Origin: Rubripirellula sp.
Lineage (GTDB): Bacteria > Planctomycetota > Planctomycetia > Pirellulales > Pirellulaceae
Reading direction: 5' to 3'
NCBI GenBank assembly: GCA_965216875.1
Contig: OZ244207.1
Coordinates: 1,152,001 to 1,216,000 of the forward strand
Length of the DNA: 64,000 nucleotides
The notes under the pieces are model-generated. The model searched no databases, was not told the origin of the DNA, and saw only the letters and a program-made list of their open reading frames with translations. A program made the position numbers and the translations under genes. Of the stretch, positions 1 through 57,371 are shown piece after piece; positions within the stretch are counted from its first letter, which is position 1, and each line of letters begins with the position of its first letter.

Positions 1-2105
1 GCATCGTCCGCATCATTGGGTGCGGGCAAAAAGTCGGGGAACCTCGAAAAGACTTCGGTCTCCGTCGGCTTGTTGTAAAGTCCACGCGAGAGAATGAAGG
101 TCTTGCGCGGTTTGGCCATGTCTTCCATTGTCATGACCTTGGGGATTTGCTTGTCGATGTTTTCGCGTTCTTTGACACTGCTGTCGCGATCGTTCAAGAG
201 TTTGACGTAGTCACTTGAGGTGCGTCGATGAGCGTCAGCGAGCAGTTTCTTCTGTTCGTTGTTGCGTTCGTCGGGCGTTGTGCGCAAAGCGACAATGAGC
301 TTTTCGTTTGGCGCGGCCATCTCGACGTCTTCACGCTCGGTAAGCGAGATACGAAAGCGGCCAAGGTTGTGCTGAGCGAAACGTGAGTCGTGGCTGAGCG
401 TCAGTGTGACTTCGGCGTCTTGCATTCCCGTGAGCGGCTTGTCAAAGGCAAACACGGCGGTGTGTTCGCGGTCGACCGTTCTTCCCTCGTGGACGGCCCA
501 GCCCGATTTGGGGTCATCGTCAAAGACGTTTTCGATTTTGAAACCGTTTTGCTCGTAGGTTGCTTTTCCGCGAGCAATCTTGATTGGTTCCGACTCGTCC
601 GCGTCTTTCCTTTTGACCTCAATCTTGAGCGAGGTGAGGACAAAGTTGCCACTATCGCTGCGTGCCAAGCCGTTCTTGGTCATCGTCTTGTGACGCAACG
701 CTTCGATACGCAATGCCGAGACCTGGTCGAGATTCGATTGAGCGACGTAGGTGTAGGTATCGTTCGGTGGGCTCCAGCCAGCGGCAAGTACGGAGTTGTC
801 GTCAAGAATCTTGAGGTTCGCGTTCTTGGCGAATGCGGTTTGAGGTTTGAGTGGTTTCCAGGCCAGGTCGGCCGTGACTTTATCAAGTTCAGCGATCTCC
901 CAATCACGCTGCGTCTTGGCAAACTCGTCGGCGATCATCTTCATTTGACCGTCAAGCTTGGCGATCTTTTCATCAAGCTCGGCCAAGCGGTTTGTTTGTT
1001 CGGTACTTGGTGCGTCGATGAAGGGTGCGGTCTGCGGGTTGCCGCCCGCCCCGGTCACAGGCGTTTGGTTGAAGAATGAAAAGAGCTCGTAGTATTCTTG
1101 GTTGGTGATCGGGTCGTACTTGTGGTCGTGGCATCGACAGCAGTTCAGCGTCATGCCCAACCAGACCGTTCCCATCGTCTCGGTCATGTCCATGACATAT
1201 TCGACGCGGTTTTCTTCGGCGATGCGGCCACCTTCGCCATTGATCATGTGGTTGCGACAAAAGCCGGTCGCCATCTTTTGTTGGTTGGTTGCGTCGGGCA
1301 ACAAGTCGCCAGCCAATTGCCAAACCGTGAACTTGTCGTAGGGCAAGTTGTCGTTGAACGATTGGACAACCCAGTCGCGCCACGGCCACATCGTCCGTTC
1401 GTTATCGCCTTGGTAGCCGTTGGTGTCAGCGTAGCGAGCTGCGTCGAGCCAGTCCCAAGCCATGCGTTGTCCATAGGCAGGCGACTTGAGCAAGCGATCA
1501 ACCAATCGTTCGTAGGCAAGCGGTTGGTTGTCCGCGAGAAAGGCATCGACTTGTTCGGGTGTGGGGGGCAGCCCCGTCAGGTCGAGCGAAAGGCGGCGGA
1601 TCAATGTGCGTTTGTTTGCTTCGTGCGATGGTGCCATCGCACGCGAAACAAGTTGCTGTTGAACGAACGCGTCAATCGGGTTTTTTCGCAGTGGCAGCCA
1701 ATCGGGTTGGGCAGCAGGTTCTTCGGGGCGCTCAATGGGACGAAAGGCCCAGTGTTGGTCCCACTGGGCACCTTCATCGATCCAGAGACCAATCAATTCA
1801 ATCTGCTCGGGGGTGAGCGAACGATTCGAATCGACCGGTGGCATCCGAATGTCTTCGTCATCGGTGGTGAGTCGATCAAACAACTCGCTCGCGTGACGGT
1901 CTGATGCTTCGATCACGGCGGCGATCCCGTCGGCGGTATCGACGCGGAGGTCGGCGGCTCGATTTGCGGCATCTGGGCCATGACAGAAGGCACAATTCTC
2001 AGAGAGGATTGGGCGAATGTCACGGACAAAGTCGACTGGATCCTCGGCAAAGCAGGTAGCAACCAGCCCGAGGCTCAAAAAGACTGAAGAAAGGTTTCGA
2101 TACAC
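1..2105 (-). CDS. Planctomycete cytochrome c / DUF1549 (PSCyt2)-type protein, probably with DUF1553 (PSD1); 3' end runs off the window
   Basis: Missing from the ORF track because its stop lies beyond the window edge. Manual translation from GTG 2105 gives a signal-like N-terminus, then 'VDFVRDIRPILSENCAFCHGPD' (CxxCH) and later 'GERMAWDWLDAARYADTNGYQGD...WRDWVV...LAGDLL...LNCCRCHDHKYDP'. Confidence 0.9.
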   Translation of the reverse strand, partial: MYRNLSSVFLSLGLVATCFAEDPVDFVRDIRPILSENCAFCHGPDAANRAADLRVDTADGIAAVIEASDRHASELFDRLTTDDEDIRMPPVDSNRSLTPEQIELIGLWIDEGAQWDQHWAFRPIERPEEPAAQPDWLPLRKNPIDAFVQQQLVSRAMAPSHEANKRTLIRRLSLDLTGLPPTPEQVDAFLADNQPLAYERLVDRLLKSPAYGQRMAWDWLDAARYADTNGYQGDNERTMWPWRDWVVQSFNDNLPYDKFTVWQLAGDLLPDATNQQKMATGFCRNHMINGEGGRIAEENRVEYVMDMTETMGTVWLGMTLNCCRCHDHKYDPITNQEYYELFSFFNQTPVTGAGGNPQTAPFIDAPSTEQTNRLAELDEKIAKLDGQMKMIADEFAKTQRDWEIAELDKVTADLAWKPLKPQTAFAKNANLKILDDNSVLAAGWSPPNDTYTYVAQSNLDQVSALRIEALRHKTMTKNGLARSDSGNFVLTSLKIEVKRKDADESEPIKIARGKATYEQNGFKIENVFDDDPKSGWAVHEGRTVDREHTAVFAFDKPLTGMQDAEVTLTLSHDSRFAQHNLGRFRISLTEREDVEMAAPNEKLIVALRTTPDERNNEQKKLLADAHRRTSSDYVKLLNDRDSSVKERENIDKQIPKVMTMEDMAKPRKTFILSRGLYNKPTETEVFSRFPDFLPAPNDADD

Positions 2106-13255: not shown

Positions 13256-14050
13256 CTACTCGATTGGGCGTTCTTCGCCTTTGTTGTTTCGCAAGAAGGG
13301 ATCGCGTTCCTGTTCGCCTTCGGCTGCCTTGAATTCGCGGAGCCAAATGTTTCGGAAACGCACAGGGTTGCCGTGATCCTGGAGCGAGATTGGGCCCGTT
13401 TCGCCATGCTTGCTGTACGCAGGAGGTCGGTTGTAGGGCGTGTCCCCTTTGAGCTCGAAGTGATTCAAGATCAAGACGCCGTTGTGAACCGCAGTGATGT
13501 AGGCGGGTGATTTGAGCGAGCCATCTTCGTTGAATCGCGGTGCAGTCCAAAAGATGTCGTAGGTGTTCCAGTCGCCCGGTTTGCGCATCGCATTGACCGC
13601 TGGTGGCGTTTGCTTGTAGATCGCGCCCGCTTGGCCATCAAAGTAGGTTTGGTTGTCGTACGAATCGAGCACTTGGATTTCGTAACGCCCCATCAAGAAG
13701 ACACCGCTGTTGCCGCGTCCTTGGCCGTTGCCTTTGACGGGCACGGGGGCTGACCATTCAATGTGCAGTTGGCAGTCGCCAAATTGGTCTTTGGTGACGA
13801 CCTGGCCCTTGCCGCTACTGACGATGCCATCTTTGACCGGCCAGTTTTCGCCGTTCTTCCACTTCGACATGTCAGTGCCGTCAAAAAGGATGATGGCATC
13901 CGATGGTGGCGAGGCGTTCGATTCGCCTGGATCGACGACGGCGGGTTCTTTCCATTTGATTCCGTTGAGGTATTCGTCTGCGGTGGCAGTGCTGACGACG
14001 GCTGTAAAGCAGGCAGTCATGATCGCAATCGTAAAGTGGCGGGCCGACAT
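13256..14050 (-). CDS. DUF1080 family (3-keto-disaccharide hydrolase-like) secreted protein
   Basis: Signal peptide; PPSDAIILFDG, FGDCQLHIEW, RGNSGVF, YEIQVLDS, GPISLQDHGNPVRFRNIW. The start may be 14086. Confidence 0.9.
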   Translation of the reverse strand: MSARHFTIAIMTACFTAVVSTATADEYLNGIKWKEPAVVDPGESNASPPSDAIILFDGTDMSKWKNGENWPVKDGIVSSGKGQVVTKDQFGDCQLHIEWSAPVPVKGNGQGRGNSGVFLMGRYEIQVLDSYDNQTYFDGQAGAIYKQTPPAVNAMRKPGDWNTYDIFWTAPRFNEDGSLKSPAYITAVHNGVLILNHFELKGDTPYNRPPAYSKHGETGPISLQDHGNPVRFRNIWLREFKAAEGEQERDPFLRNNKGEERPIE

Positions 14051-14208
14051 CGATAGGAAACCTTGGCTAAGGGGTGTTGAGGTCATGGGCAGGCGCGAGC
14101 GGAGGTCGCATTCCGCTAACGAAGTGGGGAAGTATGATTGGCCCGCGCACGCCGATCAAGCATGCCCCACACCAAACGATTTCAGCGCCATCGATCTGCG
14201 GCCAAGAA

Positions 14209-15111
14209 TCACGCCTGGGACGGACCATCGGAGTGCGAGCCGGGGCTTTTTGCAATTGCGATTGCGATTCCACCAATCACGGCCAAATTGGCTGCTAGTA
14301 ATCCAGCGATGACCGATGGCACTTTGGACACGCCGTAGCTGTGGATTTCAGTCGCATACGACGACGCCAAAACATACGAAAGTGCGATCATCCAAAACGC
14401 GACTGCGGCGACGGCACCGCCGCGAACCGATTGCCCAGCGGATGGACGGGATTGTGGCGGCATACTCAAAACCCACAAACCCGAAAGTGCGAGCGTGACG
14501 AGCGCGAACCCTTCACGAGGATCCCACCGCCAAGGTTGTCCCCAGCTGAATTGTGCCCACACGCATCCAAGCAGAACGCCGACTGCATAGAACGCGATCG
14601 CGCCTCGCAGCAAACGCCTTTCCCAGCGGCGGCAAGACAATTCCAACGCCGCCCTTCGCAATGAGCCAAGCAACGCAATCTGTGCCAACAGGTAAGCCAG
14701 CACCATACCAAGCAAGCCGCCAAGCAAAGCAAAAACGTGAAGCATCAACAGAAAACGCATCGGGCCGCTGACCAAACCCTCGATGCCGACGTCGGTCGTA
14801 GCGGGCGCTTCGACATCGACGTTGGACCTGCTGTAGTCGTTGGCGATGTTGGCCCAAGCCGATGTCTGTGATCCAAGCAGCAAACAAAAGAACAACATCG
14901 AGGCGGCGATCGAAACGAGCATCCGGAGTTTCCAAGAACGCACTGCTGGAGATGGCACCGTCGAATGGACGCTAGGGGCAGCGCGGGACAGTCGTCTTGC
15001 GATTTCGGCACAGGCTTGATCGGTTGGCATGGACGACAGCATGACATGAAGTGCATTGGAAACGGAGGCATCAAGTTCATCGCGGTACTTCACAGGATTG
15101 GAGTGATTCAC
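14209..15111 (-). CDS. Anti-sigma-like membrane protein fused to a CcsA/ResC-like (WWD) heme-handling domain
   Basis: GTG 1 nt after the ECF stop, preceded by GAGAGG. Soluble N-terminus plus TM ending in 'SAWA', then LHV, WAQFSWGQPWRWDPRE and IHSYG; about 6 TM helices. Confidence 0.8.
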   Translation of the reverse strand: MNHSNPVKYRDELDASVSNALHVMLSSMPTDQACAEIARRLSRAAPSVHSTVPSPAVRSWKLRMLVSIAASMLFFCLLLGSQTSAWANIANDYSRSNVDVEAPATTDVGIEGLVSGPMRFLLMLHVFALLGGLLGMVLAYLLAQIALLGSLRRAALELSCRRWERRLLRGAIAFYAVGVLLGCVWAQFSWGQPWRWDPREGFALVTLALSGLWVLSMPPQSRPSAGQSVRGGAVAAVAFWMIALSYVLASSYATEIHSYGVSKVPSVIAGLLAANLAVIGGIAIAIAKSPGSHSDGPSQA

Positions 15112-15112
15112 T

Positions 15113-15649
15113 TTAAGCCTCTCGGTTTTCGGAGAACTCATGCGCGAGTGACTCGCGCAGATTGTTTCGTGCCTTGTAGAGCGCGGTCGAAACGGCGCTC
15201 TCGGAGATCTCGAGATAGGTCGCAATTCTCGCGTTGGACATGCCTTCGATGTGTCGTAACGCAAAGCACCTTGCTTGACGGTCAGGCAAGGCAGCGATCG
15301 CGGCTTGCATGATCGCAATTTGTTCGTCCACTTCGATGGAGCTGGAAAGGGGCGTTTCGACGGGATGTTGGTTTACATCAAGGGGTGACGGCGTCTTGCG
15401 GCGACGCAATTGATCGATCGCCCGAAGTGTCGTCATGTGACTCAGCAATCCAATCTCGGGAAGTTGATCGCTTTTCTGGGAATGCCGGTAAGCTTCGAGC
15501 AGCACTTCTTGGGTGATGTCCTCAGCCTCGGCGGCATCGTGCAGGATTCGGTAGGCCGCTCGGAATAGCTGTTTGCTGTGGTTCGATACGAGCTGCTGCC
15601 ATGTCACGGGTGGGCGCCAAGGAGTCGAGTGTTTCAGTGGGCGGTTCAA
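15113..15649 (-). CDS. ECF RNA polymerase sigma factor
   Basis: Region 2 'LFRAAYRILHDAAEAEDITQEV...AIDQLRRR'; region 4 'LPDRQARCFALRHIEGMSNARIATYLEISESAVSTALYKARNNL'. Start is TTG 15649 or GTG 15607. Confidence 0.92.
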   Translation of the reverse strand: MNRPLKHSTPWRPPVTWQQLVSNHSKQLFRAAYRILHDAAEAEDITQEVLLEAYRHSQKSDQLPEIGLLSHMTTLRAIDQLRRRKTPSPLDVNQHPVETPLSSSIEVDEQIAIMQAAIAALPDRQARCFALRHIEGMSNARIATYLEISESAVSTALYKARNNLRESLAHEFSENREA

Positions 15650-15883
15650 AAGAGAATCGAGCGCCGACGACGAATGTCACCCCAAAACGAGAAAAAAGCG
15701 TGACGCAGCGTCGCGCTTCGATCAAATCGACGCGTGCACCTCGCGTCAGTCTGGAACGATCATCACGATCTTGCGTTGCCGATGATTGCTCCGGCAGTCG
15801 AGTGGTGTGCAGCGACGATGGTTGTTTTCAGAGCGTCAGAATGGAGTTTGACGTGTCGTTTTGGGGCGGATGGATCGTTAGAT

Positions 15884-17026
15884 ATGGCTGGGTCTCGTTA
15901 CCACTGGTTGTTGTTTGCATGCGGCATCGCGAGCCTGATCGTGCCGGCGTCGAAGTTGCAAGCCGGCGATGCGTCGGGCAACGTATCGATGGCATCGATC
16001 TGCGACGGGTATTCGTTTGGGTCCTGGCAGCTTCCCGCGCAAACCCCGGCCACCGCCCAAACTCTGCCGCAAGCCGCCATCGCCGCTCGCGCTGAACCTG
16101 CCATGGAGCGTCCTGTTTTGACGAAGCGGCTCAACCCGGTCACGCGTCGTTGGCGAGCAAACGCCGGATTCGAGTTTGGTTGGTTGCAGCCTCGCTTTTC
16201 TGAAAACGTTGCCGCCATCGTGACGAGGCCAACGGGGAATCGAGTCCTCGCGTATGACTTTGAACACGAATTGACGCCGCGCGTTTGGGTTGGCATTGAA
16301 AACTGCAATCGGGTCGGGCTCCGAGCCGGCTACTGGTACTTTGAAACCGACGCACCCACTGGCGTGTATCAGGCCACGGCTGGCTACGCCCCCATCTCAC
16401 GCACGATCGTTGGTGCATCGGGAGGACTGAGCCGAATGGCGGTTGCCAACGTCGGTGATGCGATGACGACCAACCATCATCTCGAAGCAAAAACGATCGA
16501 GCTTGAACTGACCAAACGGATCGTTCATCGGCGCGGCGATTGGACAGCAGCGCTGGGGCTACAGTACGCAAAGGTCGATCAGCGATCCCATGCGGTTGCG
16601 ACCGACGGTGTCGGAGCACTCACCGAACTCGTTTGTCAGGACATCCTGATCGACGGTTTCGGGCCAACGCTGGCAGCTGCGTGCAACCACCGCCTGTTTT
16701 GTTGCGATGGTCCGCTTCGCGGATTGGGCATTTACGGCCACGGACGAACGTCACTGTTGTTTGGACGGACGGAACAGGAGATCGTGTTGGTGACAGGGGG
16801 CGGAGCAGGGTTGGCCGAAGACGATCATCAGCAGGATAGTTTCCTGCCAATCATTTCGGTCGGCGGCGGCCTGCGTTGGATGAGTCAACCGCGTGGGTTT
16901 GGATCGATTGAGTTGAAGACCGGTTATCGCGGCGAAAGTTGGTTCAGTGTTGGCGGACCTTCCGATTTCGACAGCAACCTCGGATTCCACGGCGTCACCT
17001 TTTCGATCGCCTGGTGGCGCGCCTAG
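15884..17026 (+). CDS. Outer-membrane beta-barrel protein (Lpg1974/BBP7-like planctomycete porin)
   Basis: Signal-like N-terminus; amphipathic strands (TPRVWVG, GLRAGYWYF, GFGPTL, SLLFG); C-terminal 'LGFHGVTFSIAWWR' beta-signal. Confidence 0.75.
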   Translation: MAGSRYHWLLFACGIASLIVPASKLQAGDASGNVSMASICDGYSFGSWQLPAQTPATAQTLPQAAIAARAEPAMERPVLTKRLNPVTRRWRANAGFEFGWLQPRFSENVAAIVTRPTGNRVLAYDFEHELTPRVWVGIENCNRVGLRAGYWYFETDAPTGVYQATAGYAPISRTIVGASGGLSRMAVANVGDAMTTNHHLEAKTIELELTKRIVHRRGDWTAALGLQYAKVDQRSHAVATDGVGALTELVCQDILIDGFGPTLAAACNHRLFCCDGPLRGLGIYGHGRTSLLFGRTEQEIVLVTGGGAGLAEDDHQQDSFLPIISVGGGLRWMSQPRGFGSIELKTGYRGESWFSVGGPSDFDSNLGFHGVTFSIAWWRA

Positions 17027-50849: not shown

Positions 50850-53800
50850 CTACAACGGCTTGTTGAAACGAGACCTAAAGTCGGCAAAGTCAAACAACGT
50901 TGCGTTGGTGTCGTCGTCCATGTCGAACACTTCAAGGAGGGTTTGATTGGTGAAATAGTCGCGGAACTTGGCAAAGTCGAACAAGTTGACGGTTTCACCA
51001 CCATCGGCATCACCGAAGAGCCGGAAAAAGTTGTCGACTTTATCGACGCCGGACTCGGTTCCGTTGGCATCAATCCCGAGTTTTGCTCCATCGATGGTCA
51101 ATCGGTAGCGACCATCTTCAATGGTAGGAAGGATCCCTGGTTGGTTTTCCGACTTGTCTTCGATCAGCGTTGTTCCGGTGAACCCAAGGATCACGATTTG
51201 TTTGCCATTGACCACCTGCGAGCTCAAGACACTCAGCCCCACTTGCGTACCCGGCGAAACGGTCGTCGATTCGACAATGAAACTATCGTCAGTGATGGGG
51301 CCAACCGGCACACTTACCGGGCCTGTGAAGGTCACTTCGATTTGCCGAATGATCGATCGTTGCCCTGTGGAATCAGGTGATAAGTCTGCTTCCGCGTTGG
51401 CGTTCTTGTTGAAGTAGATGATGCTCTCTACCTCGGGCGTCGATGGAGTGTCATCGTTTTCGATCAAGCCATCAGCAGTGCTGATGTCCAGCAAGAGTGG
51501 ACTTGTCGGGTTGCTCAACGTCACGGTAAAGCCTTCATCTGGCTCGACGGTGGCGTCGCCTACGACATCAATCGTCAGTACCGTACTCGTCTGTCCCGCT
51601 GGGATCGTGACCTGTCCCGAGGGAAGGATCCCATCGTCAAAGTCGTCGGCGTCCGCGGGATCGCTGCCGCTTCCGGTGACGGCGAAATCAGCTGTCACTG
51701 GATCGGTTGTGGGACCTGTGCGCGAAACGGTAAAGGTAAAGGCGATGGTTGCCGAATCACCTTCGTCTTTGGACGCATCGAGCGGAGATATCGAAATCAA
51801 ATTCGCTTCGAACGCTCCAATGTCAACGCGAACGCCGTTCAATCGGGCAAACCCGCTGCCTCGCTGATCCGAGGTTGGGATCGCAGCCGTATCGCCTGCA
51901 TCCAAGGCTGGGCTTGTCGCCTCGAGCGCGTGCGTGTCGGTCAACCCACCATTGTTGGCAAGCGGTAGCAGCCCAGGGGCGGTGACACCGTTTTGGTCCG
52001 TCGTGAGATTGAAAACGCTTGCGGCATTACCCGTTCCGATGAGGTTGAATCCATTCGAAGTGAACGTGTTTGTGCCAGAACCCGCAAGCAGGTTGTCGAC
52101 ATCGCTATTGGCGTTGCCGGAGATGATGCTTGAGAGAACCTGCAGGTCGGAGACGTAGGTTCCATTGTTGTTGCCCGCGACCCCACTCCCAAATCCGTCC
52201 GGGGCGACGTTGCCGGTGATCGTGCTGTGACGGATGTGCGTCGTACCCTGGAAGATTGAAATACCACCACCGTTGCCGATCGATGTCGTGTTACCTGAAA
52301 TGGTTGAGTTGGAGATGGTCATCGAATTCGTCGTTGACCCGAACAAGACGCCACCGCCACGGACACCGGCGGAGTTGCCGGAAATGGTCGTGCCCGAGAT
52401 CGTTGTTTCGCCGCCTGAGGAAACGACACCACCGCCGAGCCCACCAACGGCAGAGTTACGCGATATCGTGCTGTCTTCGATCTGAAGCGAACCTTCAATC
52501 ACAAACAGTCCGCCGCCGATGCCTTGCCCCGAGGACGGATCGGTGGCGTTTTGATCAATCAGGCTTCGGCGAATTTCGACGTTAGCGTTTTCGGCGTAGA
52601 TGCCACCTGAAAATGCGTTGAATCCGGTAGCGCTGTTGTTGGCGATTACCGAATCTTCGATGACCAGTGCTTCGGATCCTGATCCGAATAAGAAGACGCC
52701 ACCACCATTGGCTGAGCCGCCCGATACGTGATTGTTAATGAGGTTCACGTCACGGAGGGTCAAGTCGCCTGTCGAATTGATCGCACCACCCGATCCAGGA
52801 TGCACCGTTCTGGATGAGTGGCCGCCAGTGAGGGTGAGTCCTTCGAGCTCGACAAAGAGCGAGCCACTCAAGTCGTGTAACTCGAACACTCGGAAGCTAC
52901 CGTTGGCGTCGATGGTCATGTTCGATGCACCGGGGCCAGAAATGATCAAGTCGTCGGTCACCGAGAGCTGCTCGATTTGCAAGGTGATCGCGCCACCAGA
53001 AAGTGCTGGGGCGAAGACAATTTGGTCGGTGCCAGGACGCGTATTGGCCAGGTCGATCGCCTCACGAAGCGACAGGTCGTTTGCCGAGTAGTCACCGTCA
53101 ATCTCGTCGGTCAAGGTATCGACGATGAATGGGTCGGCGGTCACGATTGCGACGCGATGGTCTTCGACTTCGCCATTGGGTGCGAATCCAATGACGCCTA
53201 GCCCGCCGCCTGTGCTGACTCGGAATCTGGCAAAGGAGTAACCGTTTTCAACATTGGCTCCGGTGTCTTGGGGAACCGAAAAAGTGAGTGTTTGAACGCC
53301 GTCGGTTGTCCCAAGATCGAAGTTCGCAAAGATCTGTTCACCTGGGTCCGACCAATCTCCATCGCGATTAAAGTCAATCCAAGCATCAAGCCGGTTGGCA
53401 GTCGCGTTTGCATTGCTCAGCTGGACTTCCACCGAGGCCGTGCTCGCGCCCGTTGGCGAAGCGATGATCGGCGAAAGGAAAGTGACGCCGTCTTCGTCAT
53501 CAGAGCCGTTGTCGTCGTCAAAGGACGCGTCGACAGAATTGACTCCGTCTAACTCTGCTTCACGGGACAGACCGAGGACGGGGCCCGTGTTTGTGTGGCG
53601 CGCTCCATTGTCGCTGAGCGTTACCGGATAGGTTGCGGCGAAACCACTTTGACTACTGCTTGCGGCATCGCCGAAATCAAGCGTTGCCGCGCCGTCATTG
53701 TCGGTGATCAACACATCTTCGGTCGCGTAAAGCGGTTTCACGCCTGTATTGATTTTCGTCACGCGAAGGTCGCCGCCGCCGCCGGCCAGGACAAGCAGGT

Positions 53801-56800
53801 CGCCATCGTCGGTGACAACCGATCCGACTGGGCCTTGGCCGTTTGAATTGCCAGCAGAGAAGGTGAGGATGCCGTCGCCGTCGAAACTCGTGTCGAGCGA
53901 CCCATCCGAATTCAATCTCGTGACGGCGATTTCGTTGCCAAGCGTAAAGTCGAGGTTGTATCCAACCGCAAGTAGCTTTCCGTCGGCTTGGAATTGGACG
54001 GAGGTGACGAGTTGGTCGACCGCCGGTGCGAGGTCGACGTTGACGATGCCATCGCTGTCAAACGTCGTGTCGACGAGTCCGTCGGGCGTCAACATCGCGA
54101 CGGCAAAATCGTTGGCGGTCGTGCCTTGAAGAAACGTCGAACCAGCCAGGGCGATTCGACCATCAACATCAACGGCGATTGAATGGACAGCGCCATGATC
54201 GCCATCAAAGACGACTCGGGTCGAGCCCGACGACCCGAAGGAAGTATCGAGCGTACCATCGGCATTGGCGCGGATGATCGTGCTCCGGTCACCTGCGTTA
54301 CCGACCAGCAAGAGTTGATTGTTTGCAAGCACTTTGATGGCTGAGGGTGTCGCATCAAACTCGTCAAAGCGTTTCAGCCCATTGCTGCCGAACGTATTGT
54401 CGAACAGACCGTCAGCTCGCAGTCGCAAGGCATACATCTCTGGACGTCCAAAGACCTGCGCGGCTACCAATACTTTGCCATCGGCTGCGACATCGATCTG
54501 TTCGATTGTATTGACTGGGCTTGATGAGAAATCGACCAAGCCACCGACGCCGAAACTTGTGTCAAGTGAACCATCGTCATTGAGTCGGGCAAGAAACGGG
54601 GCGGAACTACCAGAGAAGGTATCGCCAGCGACCAAAATTTTGCCGTCGTCCTGAAGAGCAATGCTCTTGGGCGACACACCGTTTGCGATCGTAATAAAGG
54701 TCAGACCACCGGTTCCGAACGAAGCATCGGGTGTGCCGTCGGCGTTCAGACGCTCCAACAGGAACTGACTGGAGTTGAAGCCCGAGGAGGCAGCCAGGAT
54801 CTTTCCATCGGGTTGGACGAGCAGGTTCTTCGCGCCAATCGACGCCGTGTTCAACTGTGTTGCTGCTTGCCCTGAAGTGCCAAAGGTCGTGTCGATACCG
54901 GTCGAGCCATTGGTCGTTCCGCCAGCGACCGTCGCCTTGATCGTGACCAGCTGATCGCCATCGGCCGCCGTATCGTCGATGGCATCCAAATCGACAGTGA
55001 CTGAGGACTGCCCAGCGGGAATGGTGACCATTGCCGGGACGGTTGCTTCGGTTGAATCGCTGCTGGTAAGGATTAGATCGAGTGCGTTGGATGTGTCCGT
55101 TCCGCGTGTGATCGTGACGGTGGTTGCGGCAGGTCCATCGGCTTCCGAAAGCGTATTTTCATCGAGGGTTACGGCAAGATCGGGTGCTGGGGGCGATAAT
55201 TCACGAATCGCAAGGCCTCCGACGCCGTAGAACGAGTTGCTCGTTACATCAATGACGATTTGGCCGCTCGCAGTGGGGGTTATCGTTTCGGCAAACGATT
55301 CCAACGTCTGCGCGCTACTGCCGATCGCTCCGTTGACCAGCAGCGTGTTTGGCGGATAGTTCTGAGCGAACGTAACGGGTGCCCCCGCTCCGGTGATGGT
55401 GACATTTTGGTTGTTGGTGAAGTTATCAAGTCCGAAAACGTAAACTTCGTAGTCGCGTGTTGGATCCAGGTCACTCCAGGTCATGGTTGCGGTGTTGTTG
55501 CTTCCAAAAAAGTTGCCGTCAACGCCGCTGAGCGATTGGGTGTGGATGGGCAATTGGGAAGCTGGCGGAGACCCAGTCGAGACGCCACCAAAGCCAGCGA
55601 CCGATAGATCAAAGGCGGTGCTGTTGCCTTGTTCGTCGATCAAGTTCGTCAGCGTTGTGTTGAAATCGGTATTGAGCGTCCAGTTGGTGGGTGAAGGCCC
55701 GCTATTGGCAAAGTCAACGCCGACCAGAACAGACGATCCTGGTGGCGGTGGCGGGGCCAGTTCGCGGATCGCGAGTCCACCCACTCCTAGGAAGGATCCA
55801 CTTGTCACATCGATGCTGATTTGGCCCGTTGCGGATGGCGTGATGATTTCGGCGTACGATCCGAGTGTTTGTGTGTCGCTGCCGAAAACTCCGTTGACCA
55901 GCAGCGTGTTCGAGGGGTAATTCTGATCGAACGTGACTGGAGTTCCTGATCCGGTGATGGTGACACTTTGATTGTTATTGAATGAGTCGAGGCCAAAGAC
56001 ATAGACCTCGTAATTGCGACTCGGATCTAAGTCGCTCCACGTCATGGTCGCAGTAGTGTTACTGGCGAAGAAGTTTCCGGCGATGTCAACAAGCGATTGG
56101 GAATGCGCTGGCAGCTGAGTGCTGAGCGGCGTCCCGCTTGCGGCTCCACTAAACCCACTGACCGAGAGATCGAAGGGCGTGCTGTTGCCCTCTTCGTTGA
56201 TCAGGTCGGTCAGGGTTGTGTTGAAAACCGTATTCAATGTCCAGTTGATGGGTGACGGTCCGCTGCTGCCGAAGTCGACCCCGACGAGCGAAGTTGATCC
56301 AGCTTCGTCGTCAAGGATATCGATCGTGTCTGAGCCATCGCTAAAGCCGGTCGCACTCGCAGTGATTTGGACCGCCTGAGTTCCGTCGCTGATGGCGTCA
56401 TCGACCGCTGAGATGGTGAAGGTGGCCGAATCGAATCCGTCGGCAATGGTGACGGAGTTCGGGACGGTCGCTTCGCTGGTGTCGTCACTCGACAGATTCA
56501 CCGTCAAGTTTCCAGTCATTCCAGTGCTTCGCGTAACGGTTGCTGTTGATGTGCCGCCGTTCTCACTGATCGAATCGGAATCGATCGTTACCGTCAGAAT
56601 GTCACCAGCGTTGCCGGTCGCTTGGATGGCGAGGCCAGCAAGCCCATAGCCGTCGACGCCCGCAGAAGCTTCGATTTCGATCTCGATCTCTCCGGCTGCA
56701 TCGGCAATGATGAGTTCAGCGTAATTCGAGAGGTCTTGCGCGCTGGAGCCGACCGATCCGTTGATGTAAAGATCGTTGTTGTCGACCGCCTGTGTGAATG

Positions 56801-57371
56801 AGACCGAATTCAGGCCGGTGATCGTAACGTCGTTACTGTGTTCGTCGACAAAGTCGTCGGCGATACCAAAGACGTAAACTCGATACTCGGCGAACGCGTC
56901 CAGGTCACTAAAAGTTGCTGTGTACGAGGTTCCTGTATTGCCGTCTCCAACAGTTCCAATTCCCAAGAGAGACTGTGTGTGTTGCGGGACGCTTGATGCT
57001 GTAGGCGACAAGCCTCGAGTCCCCGTCGAACTGCCAGTGAAATTGGTCGTCAGATCAACGGTCGTTGCAATGCCGTCTTCGCCAATCAAGTTCGACGGGC
57101 CTGCGGAAAACAGCGAACTGAGCGTCGTCCAATTGGTTGGCGAGGAAGCCCCACCTTCGATATCGATGCCGATCAGCGGACCGAGGCTAGACACCGAAGG
57201 GCCAGATTGCGCGACAGCCAGTTCGGCCGGGGCAACGGCTTGGTCCCAGATTTCATTTGGCGGTGTGTCGATGATGGACACCGCCAACAAGCGTCTATCC
57301 TCGAGTCTTTCAAGTTGATGTCGGGCCGCGCGTAACCTGCTTCGTCGACGATTGCGTCGTTTCTGTGACAT
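50850..57371 (-). CDS. Giant planctomycete surface protein (2173 aa): triplicated N-terminal domain, Calx-beta-like, delta-60 propeller, GEVED, CSLREA/choice-of-anchor-Q-like and C-terminal dockerin-like parts
   Basis: LERLEDRRLLA; repeated QPDGKIL / RLNxDGSLDTSFG; DFGDA...DEDGV...AWIDFNRDGDW...GEVED; LSLREAI; LANNGGLTDTHAL...DQRG...DIGAFE; RLFGDADG..VNLFDFAKFR. Confidence 0.9.
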   Translation of the reverse strand: MSQKRRNRRRSRLRAARHQLERLEDRRLLAVSIIDTPPNEIWDQAVAPAELAVAQSGPSVSSLGPLIGIDIEGGASSPTNWTTLSSLFSAGPSNLIGEDGIATTVDLTTNFTGSSTGTRGLSPTASSVPQHTQSLLGIGTVGDGNTGTSYTATFSDLDAFAEYRVYVFGIADDFVDEHSNDVTITGLNSVSFTQAVDNNDLYINGSVGSSAQDLSNYAELIIADAAGEIEIEIEASAGVDGYGLAGLAIQATGNAGDILTVTIDSDSISENGGTSTATVTRSTGMTGNLTVNLSSDDTSEATVPNSVTIADGFDSATFTISAVDDAISDGTQAVQITASATGFSDGSDTIDILDDEAGSTSLVGVDFGSSGPSPINWTLNTVFNTTLTDLINEEGNSTPFDLSVSGFSGAASGTPLSTQLPAHSQSLVDIAGNFFASNTTATMTWSDLDPSRNYEVYVFGLDSFNNNQSVTITGSGTPVTFDQNYPSNTLLVNGVFGSDTQTLGSYAEIITPSATGQISIDVTSGSFLGVGGLAIRELAPPPPPGSSVLVGVDFANSGPSPTNWTLNTDFNTTLTNLIDEQGNSTAFDLSVAGFGGVSTGSPPASQLPIHTQSLSGVDGNFFGSNNTATMTWSDLDPTRDYEVYVFGLDNFTNNQNVTITGAGAPVTFAQNYPPNTLLVNGAIGSSAQTLESFAETITPTASGQIVIDVTSNSFYGVGGLAIRELSPPAPDLAVTLDENTLSEADGPAATTVTITRGTDTSNALDLILTSSDSTEATVPAMVTIPAGQSSVTVDLDAIDDTAADGDQLVTIKATVAGGTTNGSTGIDTTFGTSGQAATQLNTASIGAKNLLVQPDGKILAASSGFNSSQFLLERLNADGTPDASFGTGGLTFITIANGVSPKSIALQDDGKILVAGDTFSGSSAPFLARLNDDGSLDTSFGVGGLVDFSSSPVNTIEQIDVAADGKVLVAAQVFGRPEMYALRLRADGLFDNTFGSNGLKRFDEFDATPSAIKVLANNQLLLVGNAGDRSTIIRANADGTLDTSFGSSGSTRVVFDGDHGAVHSIAVDVDGRIALAGSTFLQGTTANDFAVAMLTPDGLVDTTFDSDGIVNVDLAPAVDQLVTSVQFQADGKLLAVGYNLDFTLGNEIAVTRLNSDGSLDTSFDGDGILTFSAGNSNGQGPVGSVVTDDGDLLVLAGGGGDLRVTKINTGVKPLYATEDVLITDNDGAATLDFGDAASSSQSGFAATYPVTLSDNGARHTNTGPVLGLSREAELDGVNSVDASFDDDNGSDDEDGVTFLSPIIASPTGASTASVEVQLSNANATANRLDAWIDFNRDGDWSDPGEQIFANFDLGTTDGVQTLTFSVPQDTGANVENGYSFARFRVSTGGGLGVIGFAPNGEVEDHRVAIVTADPFIVDTLTDEIDGDYSANDLSLREAIDLANTRPGTDQIVFAPALSGGAITLQIEQLSVTDDLIISGPGASNMTIDANGSFRVFELHDLSGSLFVELEGLTLTGGHSSRTVHPGSGGAINSTGDLTLRDVNLINNHVSGGSANGGGVFLFGSGSEALVIEDSVIANNSATGFNAFSGGIYAENANVEIRRSLIDQNATDPSSGQGIGGGLFVIEGSLQIEDSTISRNSAVGGLGGGVVSSGGETTISGTTISGNSAGVRGGGVLFGSTTNSMTISNSTISGNTTSIGNGGGISIFQGTTHIRHSTITGNVAPDGFGSGVAGNNNGTYVSDLQVLSSIISGNANSDVDNLLAGSGTNTFTSNGFNLIGTGNAASVFNLTTDQNGVTAPGLLPLANNGGLTDTHALEATSPALDAGDTAAIPTSDQRGSGFARLNGVRVDIGAFEANLISISPLDASKDEGDSATIAFTFTVSRTGPTTDPVTADFAVTGSGSDPADADDFDDGILPSGQVTIPAGQTSTVLTIDVVGDATVEPDEGFTVTLSNPTSPLLLDISTADGLIENDDTPSTPEVESIIYFNKNANAEADLSPDSTGQRSIIRQIEVTFTGPVSVPVGPITDDSFIVESTTVSPGTQVGLSVLSSQVVNGKQIVILGFTGTTLIEDKSENQPGILPTIEDGRYRLTIDGAKLGIDANGTESGVDKVDNFFRLFGDADGGETVNLFDFAKFRDYFTNQTLLEVFDMDDDTNATLFDFADFRSRFNKPL

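Follow-up and report, generated by a model that had tools for sequence, protein, structure and literature searches.

Why would a membrane protein built largely from part of a cytochrome c synthase be encoded directly behind the gene of an extracytoplasmic function (ECF) sigma factor? The question is raised by a locus of Rubripirellula sp. (assembly GCA_965216875.1, contig OZ244207.1) that lies in a stretch of 64,000 nucleotides, positions 1,152,001 to 1,216,000 of the contig; we refer to this whole stretch as the window and give coordinates within it. On the reverse strand of the window an ECF sigma factor gene (15113..15649) is followed by the gene of a 300-aa protein, P0001 (14209..15111). 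The reading that we favour, and to which taken as a whole we give an even chance, is that the two form a sigma/anti-sigma pair in which a truncated heme-handling module acts as the sensor. Its parts are not equally strong. An anti-sigma role of P0001 is likely; a heme-related ligand we put slightly under even; and proteolytic release of the sigma factor at an A-x-A site is doubtful. Gene order, domain make-up, the residues kept and lost and a promoter-like motif were read from the sequence, binding of the sigma factor was predicted, and we infer the ligand, the release step and the regulon.

The identity of the first gene is straightforward. Its open reading frame (ORF) matches the Pfam families Sigma70_r2 (39 bits) and Sigma70_r4_2 (53.4 bits) and the NCBIfam sigma70-ECF model TIGR02937 (73.2 bits, cut-off 42.9), and it encodes regions 2 and 4 only, as is the case for ECF (group 4) sigma-70 factors. 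No named ECF subgroup was reached, the best specific model being NF058625 with 111 bits against a cut-off of 130. As listed, from a TTG at 15649, the protein has 178 aa. Because the promoter-like motif described below ends 5 nt before this TTG and the orthologous sigma factors begin 12–14 residues later, translation probably begins with the GTG at 15607, a codon that we confirmed in the window sequence and that would give 164 aa. The TAA stop of the sigma gene (15115–15113) is followed by a single base and then by the GTG (15111) that opens the 300-aa frame, which ends at 14209.

An AlphaFold model of P0001 based on a 35-sequence family alignment (pLDDT 85.6, pTM 0.73) divides the protein into three parts. 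Two short helices (residues 15–26 and 31–44) lie in a cytoplasmic N-terminal module, the predicted sigma-binding part (residues 1–55; 14947..15111, reverse strand). A first transmembrane (TM) helix, TM1 (residues 56–81), and a juxtamembrane helix (84–101) come next (together 14809..14946, reverse strand), and five long helices (116–149, 154–190, 198–215, 225–254 and 264–288) form a truncated heme-handling module of the CcsA type (residues 116–288; 14248..14766, reverse strand). Lysines and arginines number 7 in the loop 150–169 and 1 in the loop 82–117 (family medians 4 and 2), and this excess fits a topology in which the N-terminus is inside and H125, the WWD motif and H257 are outside. The preliminary description of this DNA had held that the sigma gene stops 1 nt before the GTG of the 300-aa gene, that a soluble N-terminus is followed by one TM helix and then by five more, and that the N-terminus is inside with the HV, WWD and HSY elements outside; the codon check, the model helices and the distribution of charges agree with each of these statements.

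The module is recognizable as a relative of cytochrome c synthases primarily by profile comparison. Residues 66–249 match the Pfam family PF01578 (Cytochrom_C_asm) with 50.5 bits against a cut-off of 29.9, so that the domain named in the preliminary description was recovered by the hidden Markov model (HMM) scan. Most of the scanned family members also pass, and the cut-off is missed by two of the seven close members scanned (P0005 with 28.8 bits, P0035 with 22.2 bits). The heme-handling family of CcsBA, CcmC and CcmF is defined by two periplasmic histidines, P-His1 and P-His2, on either side of a WWD domain (PMC6299221). The features of this superfamily were all found in P0001, namely the PF01578 score, the WWD motif, P-His1, P-His2 and a fold shared with solved members. 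The family profile matches solved CcsA/CcsBA chains at 60 bits (25vk_A) and 56 bits (7s9y_A). In the profile alignment to the fused CcsBA of H. hepaticus (7s9y), the MLHV of P0001 stands opposite IH761V, which makes His125 (14737..14739, reverse strand; codon verified) the equivalent of P-His1. The WWD motifs align, that of P0001 being WAQFSWGQPWRWDPRE (residues 185–200; 14512..14559, reverse strand; sequence verified), and HSYG stands opposite MHSYA, which makes His257 (14341..14343, reverse strand) the equivalent of P-His2. The order of elements, P-His1, TM, WWD, TM, TM, P-His2, TM, is that of System II CcsA/ResC and of CcsBA (7s9y/7s9z). Based on VIA-align, 7s9y is also the best structural match of the model (Z 14.1, 199 aligned residues, root-mean-square deviation 5.2), followed by 7s9z (Z 13.8), CcmF (Z 12.9) and CcmC (Z 12.7 and 12.3); Foldseek with the same model returned no match at E<=1e-3. 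Homology of the module to CcsA is thus a conclusion that rests mainly on the sequence profiles.

CcsBA needs two further histidines, within the membrane, for moving heme to the outer site (PMC6299221). The segment of 7s9y that carries the second of these, TM-His2 (ILH858LRF), aligns to a stretch of P0001 free of histidine, and the aligned column is His in 0 of 35 family members; one of the 35 has a His one column earlier. The family also has no CcsB part, hence no TM-His1, and the helices that precede P-His1 in CcsA are replaced in P0001 by the cytoplasmic module and one TM helix. Judged by its residues, the module no longer has the parts on which a synthase relies for carrying heme through the membrane, namely the two TM histidines, the CcsB part and the first helices of CcsA. 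On the NCBIfam equivalog for CcsA (TIGR03144) P0001 scores 52.1 bits against a cut-off of 187.6. The 8.26-Mb genome from which the window comes (G000) contains exactly two matches to PF01578, the P0001 gene and a 1262-aa frame at 5.5 Mb of contig C1, and there is no further PF01578 gene that could represent a System I CcmC or CcmF. The only ResB match of the genome sits within the 1262-aa frame, 4.3 Mb from P0001. By its domains this frame is a normal fused CcsBA, so that the organism has its own synthase and P0001, given this complete CcsBA elsewhere, is an extra, truncated paralog. No ResB/CcsB gene was seen near P0001 or in the five loci compared below, where ORFs were judged by reading and the flanks were taken without a Pfam scan. 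Long CcsBA-type frames are also present in the genomes G460 (1578 aa) and G461 (1325 aa), and in G459 there is only a 142-aa frame matching positions 173–291. The absence of TM-His2 and of a CcsB part, the score far under the equivalog cut-off and the complete CcsBA elsewhere support the view that P0001 is not an ordinary synthase. Three features reported in the preliminary description, the presence of HV, WWD and HSY, the missing histidine of the TM heme site and the lack of a nearby ccsB, were borne out by the alignment to 7s9y and by the position of the only ResB match.

To find relatives of P0001, a full HMMER profile search over 1.84 billion representative proteins was needed; a word-based homolog search gave only 2. 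The profile search delineates a distinct family of ~33 clusters that score between 111 and 590 bits. Almost all of them are 290–330 aa long and match from about residue 7, the N-terminus included. Below these clusters the scores fall to <=72 bits, the range of ordinary CcsA, CcsBA and CcmF, in which several remoter proteins of 265–287 aa have the same plan as the P0001 family. We counted conservation in an alignment of 35 members that are 24–36% identical to P0001. Eight columns are invariant (H125, G182, W185, G191, W194, W196, L204 and W213; 35/35 each); five of the eight are P-His1 and residues of the WWD motif, and L204 and W213 lie in the helix directly after it. E200 (34/35), R119 (31/35) and P198 (30/35) are nearly invariant. 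The alignment indicates that selection has kept one axial histidine and the tryptophan platform, not the second histidine.

Is the neighbourhood of the sigma gene equally constant? Five genomic contexts of the family were compared: the window, a locus of the same-genus genome G002 (L008) and three contigs of Planctomycetaceae/Planctomycetota metagenome-assembled genomes (MAGs; L004, L005 and L006). An ECF sigma gene lies directly upstream of the family member on the same strand in 5/5 loci. The two frames share 4 nt (ATGA) in three of the loci and 8 nt in a fourth, and in the window they are 1 nt apart. The sigma factors of L004, L005, L006 and L008 are 46–51% identical to that of the window and orthologous to it. 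The window genome has an unusually large ECF repertoire, with ~104 matches over the cut-off of the ECF sigma model, so that for a gene picked at random the chance of lying behind an ECF gene is about 1–2%. Since an orthologous sigma gene precedes the family member in 5/5 loci against this expectation, the pairing exceeds chance on the evidence of gene order, and the sampling behind it is solid but not broad. No other candidate for an anti-sigma factor was found between or beside the pair in the five loci.

If P0001 is the anti-sigma factor, its N-terminal module should be the part that holds the sigma factor. The module keeps a (D)ELD..AL..ML...P motif, in which L13 is conserved in 32/35 and P29 in 28/35 members. 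We predicted the complex of the sigma factor with residues 1–62 of P0001, both given as alignments, and obtained ipSAE values of 0.84, 0.85 and 0.86 against 0.00 for the best of 3 controls. The runs share >=81% of their contacts and the pLDDT of the partner is >=68. Contacts are predicted between residues 6–46 of the partner and residues 17–54 (region 2) and 107–172 (region 4) of the sigma factor; the N-terminal residues are thus predicted to dock between the two regions. Curated anti-sigma families were not recognized in the module: no Pfam hit (zf-HC2, RskA or other) was obtained for residues 1–65, and the best NCBIfam model, NF052375, reached E 0.3. A search of the protein Atlas with residues 1–105 gave a best value of 0.89 to unnamed clusters and a lead to zf-HC2 at 0.84, which is under the useful range. 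There is no paralog of the module in the window genome at E<=1e-2. In line with the expectation of the preliminary description, homologs follow ECF genes in 5/5 loci, with none beside ccsB or resB, and its suggestion that the N-terminus binds the sigma factor is backed by the predicted interface (ipSAE 0.85, best control 0.00).

A second ECF-linked protein suggests that this head is not specific to the CcsA-like module. In the genome of L004 (L071:274–2645, G459:C560) another ECF sigma gene has a stop/start overlap with the gene of a 621-aa protein. The first ~100 residues of this protein align to the N-module, TM1 and juxtamembrane motif of the family (HMM E 2.4e-6; hhalign probability 74.5%, E 2.7e-5), and the remainder is a WD40 propeller. 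Shared by the CcsA-type family and by this ECF-coupled WD40 protein, the head has the look of a modular anti-sigma unit of planctomycetes that is attached to interchangeable sensors. By eye, yet another arrangement is visible downstream of the pair in L004 (L004:2898–4886), where a further ECF sigma gene is followed by a Cys-rich N-terminus (CAECRGE) fused to Ser/Thr kinase-like sequence.

Directly after TM1 the family carries an A-W-A/G-Q/E-V motif (A85 in 24/35, W86 in 32/35, A/G87 in 32/35, Q/E88 in 27/35 and V89 in 29/35 members) at the start of the predicted helix, and the WD40 relative has AFAQV at the equivalent place. Because it is the head, not the CcsA module, that the motif accompanies, we suspect that it serves a general release step. 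By analogy, the small residues at −3 and −1 could fit a signal-peptidase site. In the RsiV/sigma V system, signal peptidase makes the site-1 cut at a position that an amphipathic helix conceals. RsiV resembles P0001 in having a motif of the A-x-A type at the start of a juxtamembrane helix after a single anchoring TM helix, and it differs in sensing lysozyme by a soluble domain; a cleavage of P0001 is purely our conjecture from this likeness. In the window genome, 10 matches to the M50 family of site-2 proteases were counted.

Upstream of the sigma gene lies a further conserved element. The ECF-type promoter-like motif GGTGACA-N15-CGATT (15655..15681, reverse strand) recurs as GGTGACA-N15/16-CGAT(a/t)T upstream of the sigma gene in 5/5 loci and is, from its position, probably autoregulatory. 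A sigma-70 promoter scan of 13900–16000 found 0 promoters, and terminator-like sites in the same interval number 4 compared with 2.2 in shuffles.

From these observations we propose the following mechanism. The short cytoplasmic module, about residues 6–46, would hold the sigma factor as a clamp between its regions 2 and 4. A single TM helix and then the conserved juxtamembrane A-W-A-x-V helix would link this head to the sensor, a five-helix CcsA-type remnant that retains the outward-facing heme site made of P-His1 and the WWD tryptophans. This site may bind a periplasmic heme-related ligand, either free heme or heme combined with the histidine of a CxxCH apocytochrome that is still unprocessed, and its occupancy would alter the packing of the module against TM1 and the juxtamembrane helix. 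The sigma factor would then be set free, possibly through cleavage at A-x-A followed by the action of an M50 site-2 protease, and could transcribe from GGTGACA-N15/16-CGAT promoters, its own included.

Several observations weigh against this reading and have to be set beside it. Some concern the anti-sigma role. The ipSAE mark that we applied, reached by 116 of 157 solved complexes and by 2 of 215 mismatched pairs, speaks for binding, but these counts hold only roughly here as our own alignments were used. Sigma/anti-sigma complexes are well represented among solved structures, and the values may partly reflect likeness or memory. The N-module has no curated anti-sigma match, as described above, and the five contexts amount to about two lineages, the own genus and one Planctomycetaceae clade. 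Others concern the ligand and the homology of the module. P-His2 (H257) is present in 22/35 members; the others have Q, R, K, N or D there, or a gap. Since H257 is absent in 13/35 members, the alignment implies that the family as a whole cannot share the bis-His ligation of CcsA. D197 is kept in 27/35 and lost in 8/35 members, and the Z of 14.1 for CcsBA is only ~2 above the ~12 reached by unrelated helical bundles, a small margin. As to the regulon, the strict motif has 14 matches genome-wide compared with ~8 by a rough estimate of chance, and its 83 loose matches are near the rough chance estimate. The strict count being this close to chance, the motif cannot define a regulon; one strict copy in the window, at ~56606, falls inside a 2173-aa ORF (50850–57371) and is a chance copy. 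The claim of the preliminary description that HV and HSY supply two histidine ligands is therefore weakened: P0001 has both residues and P-His1 is kept in 35/35 members, but P-His2 varies across the family. Its broader proposal, a synthase module reused as the sensor of an anti-sigma factor, agrees with the fusion of a truncated CcsA-type module to an N-terminus of the sigma-binding type, and it is weakened where it depended on the bis-His picture.

The variability of P-His2 and D197 and the absence of the TM heme site are also what would be expected if P0001 were an anti-sigma factor whose CcsA-derived module senses no heme. Such a module could be a polytopic anchor, could respond to another cue (membrane or redox, like the six-TM NrsF) or could dock on CcsBA and signal how heavily cytochrome c maturation is loaded. 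In ECF16, polytopic anti-sigma factors with six TM helices are known that sense via periplasmic cysteines (PMC7826278). We consider this alternative rather unlikely, although it is the most serious one: P-His1 and four WWD positions are conserved in 35/35 sequences that are otherwise ~30% identical, which is hard to square with a mere anchor, and the P-His1/WWD residues make up the heme site in solved relatives. More improbable is that P0001 is no anti-sigma factor at all but a heme-handling protein or chaperone with a special task, such as serving a subset of the many CxxCH proteins, that is co-transcribed with the ECF sigma gene and under its control. The PF01578 score above cut-off, the name 'cytochrome c biogenesis protein CcsA' given to one member by its source and the many ECF operons that include target genes speak for it. 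Against these stand the lack of TM histidines and of a CcsB part, the 52 bits compared with 187.6 on the CcsA equivalog, the conserved N-module that is predicted to bind the sigma factor and is common to the ECF-linked WD40 protein, and the lack of an alternative anti-sigma candidate beside the pair in 5 loci.

The remaining two explanations concern the regulon and the function of the family. The divergent barrel-like gene (15884..17026, forward strand), which the preliminary description had named as the candidate target, starts 234 bp from the sigma ORF, and a loose GTGACG-N13-CGAT string lies on its strand at ~15699–15724. This string differs from the conserved motif in both sequence and spacing, and the strict scan has no site upstream of the gene. 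The gene is absent at the other four loci (L004, L005, L006 and L008) and has no homolog at E<=1e-5 in the same-genus genomes G001 and G002, although G002 has the sigma/anti-sigma pair. The proposal that it is the target of the system accordingly finds little in its favour and we regard it as quite improbable, a shade below the specialised heme protein. Finally, truncation relative to CcsA and a rare, patchy occurrence (2/401 class genomes, 1/401 phylum genomes, 2/61 relatives) might suggest a decaying, functionless CcsA paralog. With a frame intact in ~33 clusters down to ~25% identity, invariant functional residues and a conserved partner gene, this is hardly credible. The reading of an ECF sigma/anti-sigma pair with a truncated heme-handling module as its sensor is the one that we retain.

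How does such a pair compare with known systems? From System II synthases the family differs, besides the residues discussed above, in its partner gene, which in each of the 5 loci is that of an ECF sigma factor and not ccsB/resB. CcmC of System I resembles it as a six-TM member of the heme-handling family with an external WWD site between periplasmic histidines and no TM histidines that is yet able to hold heme (PMC6299221); in sequence, P0001 is nearer to CcsA, and a cytoplasmic head for binding a sigma factor is absent from CcmC. HemX of Bacillus and Staphylococcus offers, by analogy, a precedent for regulatory use of the Cytochrom_C_asm fold: it is a PF01578 member that controls the abundance of glutamyl-tRNA reductase, not cytochrome c synthesis, in an organism without c-type cytochromes, and heme binding is suspected (PMC5801465). 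HemX is predicted to cross the membrane eight times and to have both ends outside, adjoins hemA (gtrR) and acts post-translationally (PMC5801465). In contrast, P0001 has six helices with the N-terminus inside and is fused to a head that binds a transcription factor, as predicted, and its gene neighbours are those of the ECF sigma factor and a 3-keto-disaccharide hydrolase, not hemA. In ECF16, as here, the ECF sigma gene is followed at +1 by that of a six-TM anti-sigma factor, NrsF/OsrA (DUF1109), that senses with periplasm-facing residues (PMC7826278). The membrane domain of NrsF is unrelated and senses by two cysteines, whereas the conserved residues of P0001 are a histidine and the WWD tryptophans; DUF1109 gave no Pfam hit in P0001 at E<=1.

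A scan of metagenome contigs with the family profile gave eight loci, none of which contains a true member of the family. Six of them are of the HemX type (L057, L059, L060, L062, L063 and L064), with CcsA-like genes of 243–282 aa directly upstream of hemA-like (glutamyl-tRNA reductase) genes on environmental contigs; the match in L058 equals that of L057. The remaining locus is of another kind. In L061 (1381–2614; contig Ga0209810_1017056) a PadR gene (82 bits) is directly followed by the gene of a 275-aa CcsA-like protein with a HAAS-like head (E 0.078, under the cut-off), one TM helix and a Cytochrom_C_asm match of 53.9 bits with HV and WGWDPRE. Proteins of this type form at least 54 clusters at 90% identity, some of them from Gemmataceae according to source names, and L061 is the one genomic context of theirs that we read. 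They share with the P0001 family the cytoplasmic head, the single TM helix, the HV...WGWDPRE CcsA-like module and the position directly after a transcription factor gene, and they differ in the HAAS-like head and in having PadR instead of an ECF sigma factor as partner. In an unrooted tree of the core module (71 rows), a branch with SH-aLRT 99 sets the 37 rows of the ECF type apart from all others. The 12 rows of PadR-type proteins group together (SH-aLRT 100) on the other, canonical side, where the CcsBA of the window genome is among the nearest rows. As the two groups are separate in this tree, two independent recruitments of the module are the simplest reading of the sequences, not a proven one. 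The wider generalization, that the WWD module, otherwise known only from machines of cytochrome c maturation and from HemX, has been recruited at least twice as the outward sensor of transmembrane switches, each made of one protein, by which a transcription factor is held at the membrane, an ECF sigma factor with a new short head in one case and PadR with a HAAS-like head in the other, we advance tentatively and think possible but clearly less than even.

The ECF-linked family is rare and patchy in planctomycetes. Among 61 relatives of the window genome a full-length member was found in 2 (G000 itself and the same-genus G002), and the other same-genus genome, G001 (84% complete), has none. Members were found in 1 of 401 genomes of the phylum (G000), in 2 of 401 genomes of the class (G000 and G999, the genome of L005) and in 1 of 301 genomes of the order of G460 (G460 itself); in these large samples only 5–7 first-look candidates were scored per genome. 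Two loci that scored slightly higher in this survey, L075 and L076, turned out to be ordinary CcsBA and were rejected as members. In the sources, one member is called 'cytochrome c biogenesis protein CcsA' and one 'hypothetical protein', and the others listed are unnamed.

The surrounding genes of the window do not appear to belong to the conserved system. The barrel-like ORF is a neighbour only. It has a signal-peptide-like start, and its sole family match, Legionella_OMP, is at 23 bits, under the cut-off of 25.4; the ORF exists as described earlier, and a porin or beta-barrel is, from the sequence, plausible and not established. Downstream of the pair and on the same strand lies a 3-keto-disaccharide hydrolase (DUF1080) gene (13256–14086, reverse strand) with a counterpart in the same-genus G002 (L008:2786–3589). 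This gene is not present in the three MAG loci (L004–L006) and, being common only to the window and G002, probably reflects plain synteny. Elsewhere in the window, a frame of 701 aa that runs off the edge of the window (3–2105, reverse strand) has a signal-peptide-like start and CAFCHG (CxxCH) near its N-terminus, in agreement with an earlier remark on a c-type cytochrome, and the 2173-aa ORF mentioned above (50850–57371, reverse strand) encodes a giant protein of repetitive-looking sequence.

Literature searches gave no description of either CcsA-like family, ECF- or PadR-linked, and planctomycete ECF surveys may describe this ECF group. In searches that covered titles and, in part, the beginnings of abstracts, we found neither a Cytochrom_C_asm/anti-sigma fusion nor a link between a heme-handling protein and an ECF sigma factor. 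Of the ECF re-classification and its supplement (PMC7826278), the portions covered mention only unrelated cytochrome c biogenesis neighbours. As far as these searches go, they suggest that the fusion of the Cytochrom_C_asm fold to a head that holds a transcription factor is without precedent.

ECF sigma/anti-sigma pairs are a major route of bacterial signalling, and for most groups the sensed signal is undefined. Here the sensor is recognizable: it keeps the residues with which synthases hold heme on the outer face and has lost those used in transport, so that for this orphan ECF system the ligand hypothesis is a concrete one that can be tested. A practical consequence is that the label 'cytochrome c biogenesis protein CcsA' on a family member probably misleads metabolic reconstructions. 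How bacteria perceive heme, or stress in cytochrome maturation, on the outside of the cytoplasmic membrane is poorly known except in a few systems. If our reading is correct, it would extend the heme-handling protein family from enzymes to receptors. Should the wider generalization hold as well, the ECF- and PadR-linked proteins would make up a new class of sensors for extracytoplasmic heme or apocytochrome, with which planctomycetes could adjust expression to the state of periplasmic heme traffic.

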